Shown here: positions 28,165 through 38,458 of the stretch, in pieces
Layout of the letters: the number at the start of each line of letters is the position of its first letter
How positions within the stretch are numbered: position 1 is the first letter of the stretch
Origin: a virus
Lineage: Duplodnaviria; Caudoviricetes
Length of the DNA stretch: 64,000 nt
Virus record (IMG/VR): IMGVR_UViG_2909979649_000007
Span: 1 to 64,000 of that record
Reading direction: 5' to 3' (one strand)
Notes under the pieces: generated by a model
Told to the model about the DNA's origin: nothing
Databases searched by the model: none
What the model saw: only the letters and a program-made list of their open reading frames with translations
Program-made: the position numbers and the translations under genes

Positions 28165-28446
28165 TTAACATCGCTCTATCGAATGACCACATAACTGGCT
28201 TAGTTTTAAATACACCTCATACATAGCTTGAGCTTCATTATCTGGTTCACTGCGGGTATGCCATTCAACTACTCCATCTAGGCTGTATGTGTTGCCTTTT
28301 CCGTCTTCCCATACCCACTGACCGGGCTTTACGTTTATTGCAGTTTTACTGACTGCAGGTTTGGCTAACTGCTTGAACATTGATTTTGGAAACTGCTGTT
28401 TTATGAGTGGCAAGTTGATGCTTGTCATTTTGTTTCCCTTATCCAA
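28165..28446 (-). CDS. Hypothetical phage protein
   Basis: ORF overlapping the upstream gene in the operon. Confidence 0.55.
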   Translation of the reverse strand: MDKGNKMTSINLPLIKQQFPKSMFKQLAKPAVSKTAINVKPGQWVWEDGKGNTYSLDGVVEWHTRSEPDNEAQAMYEVYLKLSQLCGHSIERC

Positions 28447-28787
28447 GTTTTTAATCCTTCTGGTAGAGGACAGTGGTTTTTAGCAAGTAGGTGTAAGCAT
28501 TCGATGTACAGCTGGTGTTGGGTACCGTAGCGTTTTTCAAATCGGGTTTTGTATGGGTGAATTGCCCAGCCTTTTAATATGTTATGGCCGGTGCCGTCTT
28601 GGTGGTGTCCAGCACATAGAGGCAATACATACCAATGAGCGTGGTCTTTTGTTCTGCCATCTATGTGGTGGATTGATACCCAGTTGTTGTGGCAACCAGC
28701 TTTTCTACATGCAATACAGCCGACGTGTTCTGCCAAGGCATCATGAAATAGCTTTTGTTCTTTGGTTACTGTACGTCCAGATAGCAA
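28425..28787 (-). CDS. Ref-like (HNH-class) recombination enhancement nuclease
   Basis: GCIACR...IHHIDGRTK...VLPLCAGHHQ. Confidence 0.8.
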   Translation of the reverse strand: MLSGRTVTKEQKLFHDALAEHVGCIACRKAGCHNNWVSIHHIDGRTKDHAHWYVLPLCAGHHQDGTGHNILKGWAIHPYKTRFEKRYGTQHQLYIECLHLLAKNHCPLPEGLKTWIRETK

Positions 28788-28878
28788 TTTGTTGCTCCTG
28801 AATCTAAATTGAAAAAATAAACTGGTTTAAAACCGAGGAATTAGATTAATTATGAAGGGAAAAAAGAGTTGTGTTTAG

Positions 28879-28931
28879 GTGCAACGTTGCACTTTCGTAA
28901 TTTTTTAAGCGAACTGTTTTAGTTCGCTTAA
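28879..28931. promoter_or_regulatory. Perfect 14-bp palindrome plus an 11-bp-stem hairpin at the downstream edge of the radical SAM moron
   Basis: GTGCAACGTTGCAC (28879-92); TTAAGCGAACT-gtttt-AGTTCGCTTAA (28905-31). Confidence 0.55.
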
Positions 28932-28965
28932 ATTATTTTTTGCAACAACTATCAAAAGACTGTAT

Positions 28966-29286
28966 TTACTGTAGAAATGATTGCGGGGTAGGCTTTAGCA
29001 TATTGACTCGTGTCTTCTCACGAATAATCATATCTGCAATTTTGGGACGTATATTATTTTTCCAATGATCACTACCATACACTCGGTCATACAGCTGTTG
29101 TTTCTCTTCCTTATTTTTATACCTACGCAACCAAATATAACAGTTCTCGTCTTCAGTATCGATAAAGCTTCCAATTACTAGCATACCTTGAGATAGCTGA
29201 AATGGAATAATACACGTTTCCATTATTTTAATGAAGTCGTTTATCATGCCGGGTTGGATATAATAATATCGAAGTTCATATAACAT
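28966..29286 (-). CDS. NIPSNAP-family protein
   Basis: MLYELRYYYIQPG...VIGSF...YIWLRRY...LKPTP.S. Confidence 0.88.
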   Translation of the reverse strand: MLYELRYYYIQPGMINDFIKIMETCIIPFQLSQGMLVIGSFIDTEDENCYIWLRRYKNKEEKQQLYDRVYGSDHWKNNIRPKIADMIIREKTRVNMLKPTPQSFLQ

Positions 29287-29304
29287 ATTTATCTTTATTC
29301 CTAA

Positions 29305-30651
29305 CTATATAACATTAGAGATGTAGGGGTTATTAACAGGATCAATACCAAATTCTATGTCACTTCTGACTCTTTCAGATTCTAGGGCGAGGATTAGCTC
29401 AAAAGGATTCAGGTTAATGTAGTCAAGTCTTGGTAGAGGCTTTCCCTTTTTTATTAAGTCTAACAAGCTACTTGTATCGCTAATAATACCAATAAATTCA
29501 CTGCTATCTAATTCACAGCCACTTCTGGGGTATGCCCAATAATGAAGTGGAGTACATTCACCAAAAGGGTTTATAAATAATTTATGAGCTACCTGGTCTT
29601 TTGGTAGACAATATCCTTTTGGAATACTATTGAAGAAGTTGTCACGACCGAGCGAACCAGTTAAATTAACCTTAGTAACACCAAATTTTCCATCAGCAAT
29701 TTCATTTTTAATTATATTCACTATTGTCTCTAGCTGATTAAAGTAAGCATCATTCTTGTTATCAAAATAATCGCTTTTTATTTCAATGTAATCCATTTCT
29801 ATATTGGAAATATCACGAACAAGCCTTTCAAGCTCGTGAAAATTAAACTCGCCAGCCACTGTATTGATACCAAGCTGAGTCTTTGACCCAATTTTATTAC
29901 GAACTAACACTAGCTCCTTAAGTGTTTCCATCAACTCAGACAAACTAGCTACTTTTTTGTTTTTTATATGGTCTCCAAAATATGCTTCATTGTAGCTATT
30001 ACTATCTGATGTGCTTAGACTAACGCGTAAGTTGTCACACTGCAGAGCTAGTTTGCGATTCTTTTCAATCTTAAGTAGCATACCATTTGTGAATATTGTT
30101 GAGTTTATGCCATGCTTTCTGGATAACTGCAAAATCCACTCTATAGTTTTAGGATCAGTAAAAGGTTCTAGGCCTCCTGAAATTTTAATATTTACCTGTA
30201 CACCTTCCTCTATCATTTTTCCTAAATCATCAAATATTCTTACAAAGTCCTCATAATTCAATTTCTTTTTACCTGGTGTTTTACTTTGAAATCTAAACAG
30301 TTCACGATATCCATCTTCATGTATTTTGACGCTTGGACAAAAATGACATCTTGCAGGACAATATAAGCCTACAAAAAAAACAACAGTGTATATTTTCCTG
30401 CCAAAGTGATTATTTACTGTATCAAAATAATCCCTATTATCTGAGCTTTTTAATTCATGTTGTAGCTTAGTTGACGATCTAATAAATTTATATATTCGAT
30501 TAATTTCATATAAGTTTAACGATAAACGCTTCGATACCTCTTCTGCTTTAATGTAAGGTAACCGCTTTAACAAATTAAAGACTGACCGAATTTTATTGAC
30601 AGGTATTAAACTGGAATTAAATTGAGGATCTTCTTTTAGCAACATAAACAC
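29305..30651 (-). CDS. Radical SAM enzyme, DesII-like
   Basis: CPARCHFC (CX3CX2C), SGGLEPFTDP, IFTNG, RVSL, IKSDY; collinear with DesII motifs as recalled. Confidence 0.8.
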   Translation of the reverse strand: MFMLLKEDPQFNSSLIPVNKIRSVFNLLKRLPYIKAEEVSKRLSLNLYEINRIYKFIRSSTKLQHELKSSDNRDYFDTVNNHFGRKIYTVVFFVGLYCPARCHFCPSVKIHEDGYRELFRFQSKTPGKKKLNYEDFVRIFDDLGKMIEEGVQVNIKISGGLEPFTDPKTIEWILQLSRKHGINSTIFTNGMLLKIEKNRKLALQCDNLRVSLSTSDSNSYNEAYFGDHIKNKKVASLSELMETLKELVLVRNKIGSKTQLGINTVAGEFNFHELERLVRDISNIEMDYIEIKSDYFDNKNDAYFNQLETIVNIIKNEIADGKFGVTKVNLTGSLGRDNFFNSIPKGYCLPKDQVAHKLFINPFGECTPLHYWAYPRSGCELDSSEFIGIISDTSSLLDLIKKGKPLPRLDYINLNPFELILALESERVRSDIEFGIDPVNNPYISNVI

Positions 30652-30805
30652 TATCCAACATCCATGAAAAACAATATTTCTTTAGTCTAAGTGGATATCA
30701 CAGGTTATCTCAATTTAATTAGATATTACACTCATTAATATAAAATGGAGCTTAAGTACCTATCAAAGAAAGTTTTTTAAATACCAAAATAGTACTATTT
30801 AGTAA

Positions 30806-31213
30806 CTAATTACTTGTAGAAATTTTTATCTTTCTTCCTCTGCAACCTATAATGTTAAACACCTGCCTTCTTGATAATGCATATTTTAATGCAACTAAGT
30901 CAGCTCTTGAGACACCTGTGCTAGGTTTTGTATTGATATACTCTTTCCTAATTAACTGATTTCTGAGTTCTTTAAATTCGTTTTTCGTTGGAAAATGAAT
31001 TGTTTGCCCACTGAGACGTGCTGCAATTTTATTAGCCGCCTCATGACCAACAGCAAGGGTGATCAGATGACCCTTACCTATAACTCGGGGGATGTATAAC
31101 CTAGCCCCTCCAAGGCACTGACCTAACTTGATAGCTGCTTGTTCTCCAATAGTTTCGGTTAGCTCGTTCATGATTGACATGATGTATATCCTCTTTGGAT
31201 CGATATAAAGCAC
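30806..31213 (-). CDS. Mor-family transcription activator
   Basis: LGGARLYIP...LRNQLIRKEY...LALKYALSRRQVFNII. Confidence 0.8.
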   Translation of the reverse strand: MLYIDPKRIYIMSIMNELTETIGEQAAIKLGQCLGGARLYIPRVIGKGHLITLAVGHEAANKIAARLSGQTIHFPTKNEFKELRNQLIRKEYINTKPSTGVSRADLVALKYALSRRQVFNIIGCRGRKIKISTSN

Positions 31214-33544: not shown

Positions 33545-34246
33545 ATGACTGAAAAGAATAGCGAGCTTAAAGATAGAATCCGAGTATCTAGACAAGCTCT
33601 TGGCTTTTCCCAGCAAGAAGTAGCCGATAAGTTAGGAGTAACTAAGTCGGCTGTAGGTGCTTGGGAGCAAGGTAGGAATGATCCTTCAAAGCTTGTTATG
33701 AAAGAGTTGGCTAATATTCTTGATACCCCTTTAGAGTGGCTAGAGTCTGATGAAACTTATATTACTGATGACTGGATTGAGACAGGATTTGAAAAGAATA
33801 GTGAGTTTAAAGATCGACTAAAGGTTGTACGAAAGTTTCGAAAACTTACTCAAAAGGAGCTGGCTGAACAGTTACACATTACCCCGGCTGCCGTTGCGGC
33901 ATGGGAAACTGGCCGCAGTAGACCTAATGAGGTAATAATTAAAAGGGTTAGTGAAATTTTTGATTGCCCATACAAATGGCTATCCTCTGATGAGGTTGCT
34001 CTTGGCAAGAAGTGGAAGGCAGGTATAAACGAAGATAGCTCATCACCACCTAATATTGTCGAAGATTCCGCTTCTAAAACATACGGGCAAAAAGCTGTTG
34101 CAGATGAAGCAGGCTTTGTTGAAGAAATTAGTAAGCTATCAATAAGAATGACCAAGCTAGCATTTGAAAAACGCGTTACAGCAAGTGATATCCAGATGTT
34201 GAAAGCTTTCCTTGATGTTATTGAAAATAGGCAAGATAAAAAATAA
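33545..34246 (+). CDS. Prophage repressor with two tandem XRE HTH domains and no S24 peptidase domain
   Basis: EKNSELKDRIR...SQQEVADKLGVTKSAVGAWEQG and EKNSEFKDRLK...TQKELAEQLHITPAAVAAWETG. Confidence 0.85.
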   Translation: MTEKNSELKDRIRVSRQALGFSQQEVADKLGVTKSAVGAWEQGRNDPSKLVMKELANILDTPLEWLESDETYITDDWIETGFEKNSEFKDRLKVVRKFRKLTQKELAEQLHITPAAVAAWETGRSRPNEVIIKRVSEIFDCPYKWLSSDEVALGKKWKAGINEDSSSPPNIVEDSASKTYGQKAVADEAGFVEEISKLSIRMTKLAFEKRVTASDIQMLKAFLDVIENRQDKK

Positions 34247-37342: not shown

Positions 37343-38458
37343 ATGCCACCACGCAAAAGAAGTAGGAAAAATCTAGGGCTAGAGCCTAACTTATATACCT
37401 ATGGACCAAAAAACGACTACTTCCGGTACAAGCACCCCCTTACTGGAAAGTACCACCCCATGGGTAAGAATCGAGCCAAAGCACAAGCGGCGGCTCGTCA
37501 GCTGAATATTAGGCTTGATGGCCAGTGTATGCTGGTCGCTCATGTGATGGACTCCGATGCAGCTAATGTTGAGCTGCTAATTGATAGGTTTAAAAAAGAG
37601 TTTTTACCTACTCGCAACCTTAAGCCTCGCAGCTTATTGAATTCTGAGTATCGATTAAATCGCATTGCCAGGGATATTGGAAAGCTGCCATTAAAAGAAC
37701 TTACAGTGCCAACTGTTGCTGACTATCTAGATAATAGTTTTTCAGGTGACTCTTACTGCCAACATCGATCAATTTTAATTCAAGTTTGTCGCTTCGGTAT
37801 CACTAAAGGATTACTAACTTTCAACCCCGCTGAAGTAACAATGAATAAAAAAGCTGAAAAAATACGGCAACGGATGACCATTGAGCAATACCACGCTATA
37901 TACCAATTAGCAGACCCTTGGTTGAAAAATGCTATGGATATTGGGTTAATTACCCTTCAACGTGCAGGTGATGTTGTAAAAATGAAGTTTGAGGACATCA
38001 AAGACAACCGCCTCTTTGTTATACAACAGAAGACAGAAAAGCATGGTGAATCAGCCTACCTGGCCATCAACATTGGCGAAGAGCTAGGTGCAGTTATTAA
38101 ACGAGCAAGCGAGAGTGGTATACGTAGCCCCTACATTGTTCACAGAAACCCTGACAGGCGCAGTAGCAGCCATCGGCGTAATGACCACTGGACAGCTATT
38201 AAGCGTGATTATCTCAGCCGAGCATTCTCTGAGGTGCGGGATAAAACTAACTTATTTAAGGAGTTAAAAGCCAGAGAGCGCCCCACCTTTCACGAAATAC
38301 GATCCCTGGGTGGCTACCTCTATGAAAAAGCGGGATACGACAAGGACTTTATTAGACGACTAATGGGTCATACTTCTGAAAAAATGACATCACATTACTT
38401 AGATGGTCATGCTAATCGATGGACAGAATGTTCAGCTGAACTAGTCATACCAGATTAG
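37343..38458 (+). CDS. int: Lambda-type tyrosine integrase with an arm-binding domain
   Basis: Catalytic R (LQRAGD), HxxR (FHEIRS), H (LMGHT) and Y (TSHYL). Confidence 0.96.
   Translation: MPPRKRSRKNLGLEPNLYTYGPKNDYFRYKHPLTGKYHPMGKNRAKAQAAARQLNIRLDGQCMLVAHVMDSDAANVELLIDRFKKEFLPTRNLKPRSLLNSEYRLNRIARDIGKLPLKELTVPTVADYLDNSFSGDSYCQHRSILIQVCRFGITKGLLTFNPAEVTMNKKAEKIRQRMTIEQYHAIYQLADPWLKNAMDIGLITLQRAGDVVKMKFEDIKDNRLFVIQQKTEKHGESAYLAINIGEELGAVIKRASESGIRSPYIVHRNPDRRSSSHRRNDHWTAIKRDYLSRAFSEVRDKTNLFKELKARERPTFHEIRSLGGYLYEKAGYDKDFIRRLMGHTSEKMTSHYLDGHANRWTECSAELVIPD

Follow-up and report, generated by a model that had tools for sequence, protein, structure and literature searches.

The window analyzed here is a 64,000-nucleotide stretch, positions 1 to 64,000 of the IMG/VR record IMGVR_UViG_2909979649_000007 (Caudoviricetes), and its minus strand carries two adjacent genes, encoding a radical S-adenosylmethionine (SAM) enzyme and a NIPSNAP-like protein, between a Mor-like and a Ref-like gene. 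A first-pass annotation, made from the sequence alone, had described an AT-rich two-gene insert at this position, and the open reading frames, the Pfam matches, the GC content, and the alignments with sibling prophages all agreed with that description. The main features of the locus are as follows.

28896-30848, minus strand: variable cargo segment, approximately 1.95 kb and AT-rich, bounded by homology breaks in DNA alignments of four related prophages
29305-30651, minus strand: radical SAM enzyme gene, an open reading frame of 448 amino acids from a GTG start (PF04055)
28966-29286, minus strand: NIPSNAP-like gene, 106 amino acids, single domain (PF07978)
30806-31213, minus strand: Mor-like activator gene, the upstream flank (PF08765, phrog_836)
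28425-28787, minus strand: Ref-like RecA-dependent HNH nuclease gene, the downstream flank (PF16786, 86.8 bits)

The GC content was 0.28 to 0.34 over positions 28800 to 31000, compared with 0.41 to 0.45 on both sides. The 448-residue protein matched the Pfam Radical_SAM family (PF04055) above the cut-off with 36.6 bits, and the 106-residue protein matched NIPSNAP (PF07978) with 29.9 bits against a cut-off of 22.3. The enzyme gene has an alternative ATG start two codons later, at position 30645, which gives the 446 residues of the database copy (P0001), and the NIPSNAP gene begins 18 nucleotides past the enzyme stop codon. Neither the list of open reading frames nor a Pfam scan of the window revealed sugar-pathway genes near the pair, so that the enzyme is indeed stand-alone here, as had been proposed.

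Sibling prophages hold unrelated genes in the same slot between mor and ref, and the segment at 28896-30848, with its two-gene enzyme module, is therefore exchangeable prophage cargo (a moron). The siblings, located in the same genome and in a congener, encode Mor and Ref homologs with 72 to 76% and 82 to 94% amino acid identity, respectively, approximately 1.7 to 2.1 kb apart. Backbone homology ends after ...GTTTAACATTAT (at about 30849) and resumes at AAAGTGCAA (at about 28895), and the upstream break falls in the last codons of mor (30806-30850). Since the cargo junction lies within these codons, the window Mor differs from its siblings at the C terminus, ending in a 13-residue tail (…GCRGRKIKISTSN) that the siblings do not have. 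The mor-ref slots of the siblings (L069, G000:C1:1374000-1378000; L070, G002:C133:10500-14500; L071, G000:C1:2646500-2650500) held three types of cargo: a 270-residue pentapeptide-repeat protein with a 241-residue protein on the opposite strand, the latter showing a faint ThsB/TIR-like match; a 501-residue protein that fell into no family; and an IS4/5-type insertion in mor together with a 429-residue secreted trypsin-like protease. Conserved backbone flanks, different cargo at the same site in relatives, and a foreign GC content are thus all found at this locus. The enzyme gene was present as a single copy in the 6.69-Mb host genome and absent from five other genomes of the host's family.

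The enzyme can be divided into three domains.

Residues 1 to about 85: N-terminal helical domain
Residues about 86 to 330: radical SAM core
Residues about 331 to 448: C-terminal β-hairpin and helices

We aligned 29 sequences of the family and built an AlphaFold (AF2) model of the enzyme on this alignment, to which all statements of invariance below refer. The motifs that the first-pass annotation had likened to those of DesII of Streptomyces venezuelae (deoxythymidine diphosphate [dTDP]-4-amino-4,6-dideoxy-D-glucose ammonia-lyase; 8HZV/8HZY) were all present in the enzyme. The single cluster motif C98-x3-C102-x2-C105 (CPARCHFC), the SGGLEP at 158-163 with its extra Leu, the TN at 188-189, and the RxSL at 209-212 were invariant; in the β6 D-Y pair at 294-295, Y295 was invariant, and position 294 was D, E, or N across the family. 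All 55 family-invariant residues were kept in the window enzyme.

The AF2 model (predicted local distance difference test score [pLDDT], 91.5) resembled DesII over its whole length. Foldseek aligned it with 8hzv at an E value of 2.6e-19 and a template-modeling (TM) score of 0.72 to 0.75 over approximately 480 columns, whereas the next entries (SuiB, SkfB, viperins, MoaA, and BlsE) matched the core only, at a TM score of about 0.4 (best, 0.43). Similarly, VIA-align gave a Z score of 29.7 and a root mean square deviation (rmsd) of 3.1 Å over 413 residues (model residues 5 to 445, chain residues 32 to 486), compared with a core-only Z score of about 20 for the next fold, the values being 20.4 for BlsE (7vob) and 16.6 to 17.5 for viperin structures. 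DesII (8HZV/8HZY) was also the best solved structure in a single-sequence search (E value, 0.019) and the top PDB match of the family profile (E value, 3.4e-14), and hhalign against five DesII-family sequences returned a probability of 100 and an E value of 1.6e-48 over 445 columns, with the N- and C-terminal helices included. The similarity of these terminal helices, which had been noticed in the sequence, was thus borne out by three methods. The enzyme has the complete three-domain DesII architecture, with the six-helix N-terminal domain, the core, and the β-hairpin and helices common to both proteins, and it is a member of the DesII-like subgroup, or superfamily. DesII came top by sequence and by fold, ahead of generic SPASM and other radical SAM families. 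We rejected a SPASM/twitch assignment, since the enzyme had no SPASM or Fer4 match in Pfam and only two cysteines were conserved outside the CX3CX2C motif (Cys348 and Cys366), too few for an auxiliary cluster; a single CX3CX2C cluster and no SPASM/twitch cluster are likewise found in DesII. Among the BFVD models of viral proteins, none had the three-domain DesII fold (best TM score, 0.47).

However, the label "DesII-like" held for fold and superfamily only, and not for membership in the DesII equivalog. The enzyme scored 40.2 bits (E value, 1.7e-10) against TIGR04426, whose cut-off is 450, and this was no higher than its scores against the viperin (47.5 bits) and tungsten-maturase (41.5 bits) models; its identity to DesII was 16 to 17%. 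The SAM-binding motifs of DesII are CX3CX2C, GGLE, the R-x-S ribose motif, and the β6 D-Y, and its D456A variant is inactive, whereas the E408A and E408Q variants remain active (PMC11434129). By mapping DesII residues through a close DesII homolog (P0167) and a profile alignment, we found that C98/C102/C105, G159-E162, R209/S211, and 294/Y295 of the enzyme align with C141/145/148, G187-E190, R238/S240, and D323/Y324 of DesII, and that the position of DesII Y242 is Ser or Thr in the enzyme family. The L-D-x-[FW]-D motif of the DesII family fell on L414-N415-P416-F417-E418 in hhalign, so that D456 corresponds to Asn415 and D459 to Glu418, both invariant. Both local and global hhalign runs left the β-hairpin that holds DesII E408 unaligned. 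The enzyme family also has a conserved stretch that is absent from DesII and includes Cys348, Gln353, and Cys366. No DesI-type aminotransferase or nucleoside diphosphate (NDP)-hexose 4,6-dehydratase gene was found in the window or beside the clade members surveyed, and the clade is unlike DesII in being paired with NIPSNAP or ABM proteins. The enzyme is therefore not DesII itself but belongs to a sister clade within the DesII-like superfamily. "DesII-like" is the name of SFLD subgroup 7 (PMC9477430), which is Megacluster-1-8 at RadicalSAM.org, and in the literature that we searched the term turned up only as this subgroup name.

The family is very small. A search of 5.8 billion proteins yielded 35 clusters, a search of 1.84 billion yielded 41 representatives below 1e-30, and members were present in 25 of 185,579 species genomes. 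No relative of the clade occurred among the 2.9 million viral contigs of IMG/VR, and a metagenome scan added neither a closer relative nor a phage context; the window copy is the only phage-borne member of its clade in the collections searched, and its closest relative is P0003, with 63% identity. The tree had three groups: the window clade (support, 100), comprising gammaproteobacterial metagenome-assembled genomes (MAGs) and the cyanobacteria Okeania and Dapis; a clade from Desulfobacterales and Myxococcota; and a sister group of 820- to 880-residue fusion proteins that join the whole enzyme to a Gfo/Idh/MocA NAD(P) oxidoreductase (Shimodaira-Hasegawa-like approximate likelihood ratio test [SH-aLRT] support, 96 to 97). 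These fusions, which are uncharacterized and come from Nitrospirota and others, are the nearest outgroup, scoring 350 to 413 bits against the window-clade profile and aligning with the enzyme over its full length. They carry an NAD(P) sugar-oxidoreductase domain instead of a NIPSNAP or ABM partner, whereas the window clade is unfused and lies outside sugar clusters. One fusion gene adjoined genes for a UDP-sugar dehydrogenase, a UDP-GlcNAc 2-epimerase, two glycosyltransferases, and a flippase, and another had no sugar-gene neighbors. Homologs confined to complete sugar clusters would have spoken against the stand-alone reading; in the context survey, the members of the window clade did not sit in such clusters.

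Genes resembling DesII proper do occur in viruses. Radical SAM genes of about 500 to 520 codons on IMG/VR contigs encoded proteins with 35 to 39% identity to P0167 and sat in complete one-strand NDP-sugar operons (loci L074-L086; e.g., L079:2376-14702) together with genes for a DegT aminotransferase, a B12 radical SAM protein, a PfkB kinase, epimerases, and a 4,6-dehydratase, with a Gfo/Idh/MocA-DAO gene directly downstream of the DesII-proper-like gene. Phages therefore encode full deoxy-aminosugar pathways using DesII-type chemistry. In the ESM Atlas, we also saw viral radical SAM clusters of about 475 to 512 residues. Separately, DesII-like domains were found inside giant proteins of 5,700 to 7,800 residues (P0057, P0073, P0083, P0090, and P0174), one of which (P0057) is annotated as coming from a Candidatus Omnitrophota MAG.

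The second protein of the module gave an AF2 model with a pLDDT of 97.3 and a ferredoxin-like α+β fold. It matched five bacterial NIPSNAP structures in Foldseek (TM scores, 0.87 to 0.90; rmsd, 1.4 to 1.6 Å), followed by ABM proteins, LsrG, YgiN, and the rhamnose mutarotase YiiL, the TM scores of the ABM proteins and LsrG being about 0.64 to 0.70. Bacterial NIPSNAP structures such as 5k9f, 1vqy, 1vqs, and 2ap6, for which no function is known, thus share the fold of the window partner, and LsrG, an ABM-fold enzyme, shares its fold class. Judging from the models, NIPSNAP and ABM proteins are of the same fold class, and we refer to both as barrel proteins.

The pairing with a barrel protein extended well beyond the window. 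A gene for a 100- to 107-residue NIPSNAP protein directly followed the enzyme gene in the window clade, apart from its cyanobacterial members, and in part of the second clade, in at least seven different contexts, with gaps of 9 to 20 nucleotides or, at two loci, overlaps of 11 to 16 nucleotides. The surroundings of these pairs were otherwise unshared (LptFG and peptidase M17, FeoB, MerR/FYVE, and an ABC transporter), and the pair is thus inherited together in unrelated genomes. In one subclade, an ABM gene lay directly upstream of the enzyme gene in all nine loci. More distant NIPSNAP proteins (42 to 51% identity) occur without the enzyme. At 12 of the 25 genome loci, all of them in the Desulfobacterales/Myxococcota clade, the operon of the enzyme with ABM or NIPSNAP had as its neighbor a gene for a hybrid kinase of 640 to 660 residues with PAS, HisKA, HATPase, and receiver domains (L027-L047; e.g., L030:5166-7109, L036:5642-7564, and L035:9427-11355). 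As a separate observation, three second-clade loci without a barrel partner (L033:9202-9975, L034:9351-10148, and L039:9362-10135) had a conserved convergent gene for a membrane protein of about 257 to 265 residues just downstream of the enzyme gene.

Taken as a whole, we favor with moderate confidence the reading that the exchangeable cargo is a two-gene module in which the DesII scaffold performs radical chemistry on a sugar-type small molecule and the barrel protein handles the product; granted this, the chances that the substrate is linked to a nucleotide appear to be about even. We infer the mechanism from the chemistry of DesII and from the sister clades. A [4Fe-4S] cluster on C98/C102/C105 would cleave SAM, and the resulting 5′-deoxyadenosyl radical would abstract a hydrogen from a carbinol carbon of the small molecule, most likely a nucleotide-linked sugar or a similar polyol, which the N- and C-terminal domains would hold in place. 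The α-hydroxyalkyl radical would then lose a neighboring OH or NH3 or be oxidized, and the product would be a keto or keto-deoxy compound. The barrel protein (NIPSNAP here, ABM in a sister subclade) would tautomerize, isomerize, or bind this reactive product; in the sister clade, the fused Gfo/Idh/MocA NAD(P) oxidoreductase takes the place of the barrel and would reduce the ketone instead. In this way, the pair may alter a host metabolite pool for the benefit of the phage or the lysogen. A parallel for such a division of labor is AprD4, a radical SAM sugar dehydratase that works with the reductase AprD3 and, like the cytosylglucuronate decarboxylase BlsE, acts on sugar carbinol carbons. The AprD4-AprD3 pair resembles the radical SAM enzyme with its Gfo/Idh/MocA domain or its barrel protein; however, AprD4 and BlsE fall into different subfamilies, whose C-terminal domains are of the twitch or another type, and they work with reductases rather than with NIPSNAP or ABM proteins.

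Several observations weigh against this reading. D456, without which DesII is inactive, is replaced by Asn in the enzyme family. In addition, E408 probably corresponds to Tyr371, and R407 to the invariant His370, in a manual alignment anchored on Gly364 and Pro375. Because of these two substitutions, the chemistry of the enzyme may differ from that of DesII. At the homolog loci surveyed, the window clade was never within a sugar cluster, and the case for a sugar is therefore drawn from the sister clades. The enzyme also occurs without a barrel protein, namely, in the cyanobacterial members, and can thus do without this partner; we know of no activity for any bacterial NIPSNAP protein. The hybrid-kinase link suits a regulatory or stress role equally well as a sugar role. 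Finally, promoter-like sites upstream of the enzyme gene were no more numerous than in shuffled sequences.

A more specific version of the proposal is that the pathway-independent DesII-fold enzyme and its NIPSNAP helper turn a common host nucleotide-sugar or nucleotide into a reactive keto-deoxy weapon or signal, for example, one that blocks the DNA of a rival phage or the glycan synthesis of the host or one that feeds a PAS-type sensor. We regard this version as unlikely; if true, phage-borne small-molecule effectors would gain a new class, and a bacterial NIPSNAP protein would for the first time have an assigned function. The roles suggested in the first-pass annotation, namely, surface remodeling, interference with the glycosylation of a rival phage's DNA, or viperin-like inhibition, are conjectural.

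No more probable, in our judgment, is a viperin-like antiviral or superinfection-exclusion module, in which a dehydrated nucleotide or nucleotide-sugar analog would shield the lysogen by poisoning an incoming phage in its replication or its DNA modification. In favor of such a module, the AT-rich gene is carried as cargo in a variable prophage slot and is rare, with a patchy distribution, one sibling cargo gene has a faint TIR-like match, and there is a weak but real similarity to prokaryotic viperins (pVips), with 53 bits against PADLOC PDLC02903 and 47.5 bits against the NCBIfam viperin model. Viperin shares its type of radical elimination with DesII, as is well established (PMC11434129). 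The enzyme shares with viperins the radical SAM core, a stand-alone gene without a pathway, and, if its chemistry is as we propose, elimination beside a carbinol radical on a nucleotide-bound sugar. However, the pVip similarity was confined to the core (residues 90 to 279), and the 47.5 bits fell far below the NF038283 cut-off of 180, which places the enzyme outside the viperin family. Viperin folds reached Z scores of only about 17, compared with 29.7 for DesII, and pVips are about 300 residues long and without the N- and C-terminal domains of DesII. Moreover, the homologs were surrounded by housekeeping rather than defense genes, PADLOC finding only faint P-loop, coiled-coil, or TIR-like matches among the homolog neighbors and the sibling cargo, and none of the 2.9 million viral contigs carried a relative. 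These nondefense neighbors and the conserved hybrid histidine kinase link in Desulfobacterales point away from a dedicated antiviral role.

The same kinase link raises the further alternative that the pair makes or modifies a signaling or stress metabolite sensed by a PAS-domain kinase and that the phage copy disturbs host signaling. It is the PAS-HisKA-HATPase-receiver kinase beside nearly half of the genome loci that speaks for this alternative, together with LsrG, which isomerizes phospho-autoinducer-2 (phospho-AI-2) and is among the structural neighbors of the partner. However, the link is restricted to the Desulfobacterales/Myxococcota clade and absent from the window clade, no kinase accompanies the phage copy, and adjacency to a regulator may mean mere regulation; we hold this alternative to be somewhat more doubtful than the antiviral one.

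Still less probable is that the segment is functionless passenger DNA, acquired by illegitimate recombination and decaying. Although its composition is foreign and a hairpin in it resembles a leftover terminator of the convergent gene seen after the pair elsewhere, both reading frames are intact, 55 of 55 family-invariant residues are kept, and the pair retains its gene order and close spacing. We give almost no credence to a true DesII ortholog that would act as dTDP-4-amino-4,6-dideoxy-D-glucose ammonia-lyase on a host dTDP-aminosugar and alter a surface polysaccharide, because the common three-domain fold and SAM motifs are offset by a TIGR04426 score that is 40.2 rather than 450 bits, the identity of 16 to 17%, the invariant Asn in place of D456, and the lack of an adjoining DesI-type aminotransferase or 4,6-dehydratase gene in every clade member.

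With radical chemistry on a sugar-type molecule as the preferred reading, the locus brings together a DesII scaffold, a changed essential acid, and a two-gene unit with a NIPSNAP/ABM barrel in a distinct and very rare clade that has left the sugar clusters. To our knowledge, DesII is the only characterized member of its radical SAM subgroup. With two genes and one cluster, the clade is a small, clean target in the search for new radical chemistry, and it opens a first way into the function of bacterial NIPSNAP proteins. What the locus adds to phage biology is a sharply delimited cargo slot, bounded by mor and a conserved putative promoter, that holds varied accessory genes in sibling prophages. 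In the literature that we searched, we found no description of the clade, of the NIPSNAP/ABM pairing outside sugar clusters, or of its presence in a phage cargo slot, and no paper that mentions both "NIPSNAP" and "radical SAM." What was already known is thus the DesII-like subgroup; what is new is the clade, its barrel pairing, and its phage cargo location.

The regulatory and flanking features of the locus and of the prophage around it are listed below.

28879-28892: perfect 14-bp palindrome, GTGCAACGTTGCAC, in the phage backbone upstream of ref
28904-28932, minus strand: 11-bp hairpin after the NIPSNAP gene, with a minimum free energy of the RNA fold of −16.4 kcal/mol (z, −3.9)
30652-30805, minus strand: AT-rich cargo leader, with a candidate σ70-like site, TTGATA-18-TATATT, at 30766..30737
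33545-34246: double helix-turn-helix repressor gene of the prophage
37343-38458: lambda-type integrase gene of the prophage

The insert had been described as ending in a palindrome and a hairpin, of which only the hairpin belongs to the cargo. The hairpin was absent from the sibling prophages in the DNA alignments, and it came with the cargo, as it lies inside the mapped breakpoints. Its T-run is on the plus strand, and hence it does not form a canonical terminator on the sense strand; given this orientation and the convergent gene that is found after the pair elsewhere, it may be the leftover terminator of such a gene.

The palindrome, in contrast, is part of the conserved phage backbone. It is kept in the sibling prophages with a symmetry-preserving CG-to-TA change, and three of its four copies in the genome lie approximately 100 bp upstream of ref homologs. 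It abuts a −35/−10-like pair before ref (TAAACA at 28877-28872, a 17-nucleotide spacer, and CATAAT at 28854-28849). We rejected the possibility that it acts as an RNA terminator, since the RNA hairpin was weak (z, −1.2) and the element is conserved as DNA with a symmetric change. Judging from these sequence features, it is probably a protein-binding site, or promoter operator, outside the insert, and a candidate for the operator to which the Mor-like activator, whose gene immediately precedes the cargo, would bind. Relative to the start site deduced from the −10 element, the center of the palindrome is at about −43.5. Provided that this start site is correct, the geometry would match that of Mor binding at the Mu middle promoter.

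The mor and ref flanks are parts of the rightward early operon of a lambdoid prophage, whose members in the window also include an O/DnaT-like gene, a lambda-P replication gene, and a Q-like gene. The pair would be read through with this early operon, since it is on the operon strand and upstream of the ref promoter and since no sense-strand terminator was found between mor and the pair; it may also be transcribed from a candidate promoter in its own AT-rich leader. In a blastn search, no GenBank phage matched the region. The prophage also encodes an amidase endolysin and a terminase, the latter with 58% identity to Vibrio phage terminases. In a scan of the whole genome of the host (G000), we counted 11 matches to the Mor-like protein, several of them interrupted by stops, together with 6 matches to the Ref-like protein, which indicates many related prophages or remnants in one 6.7-Mb genome.

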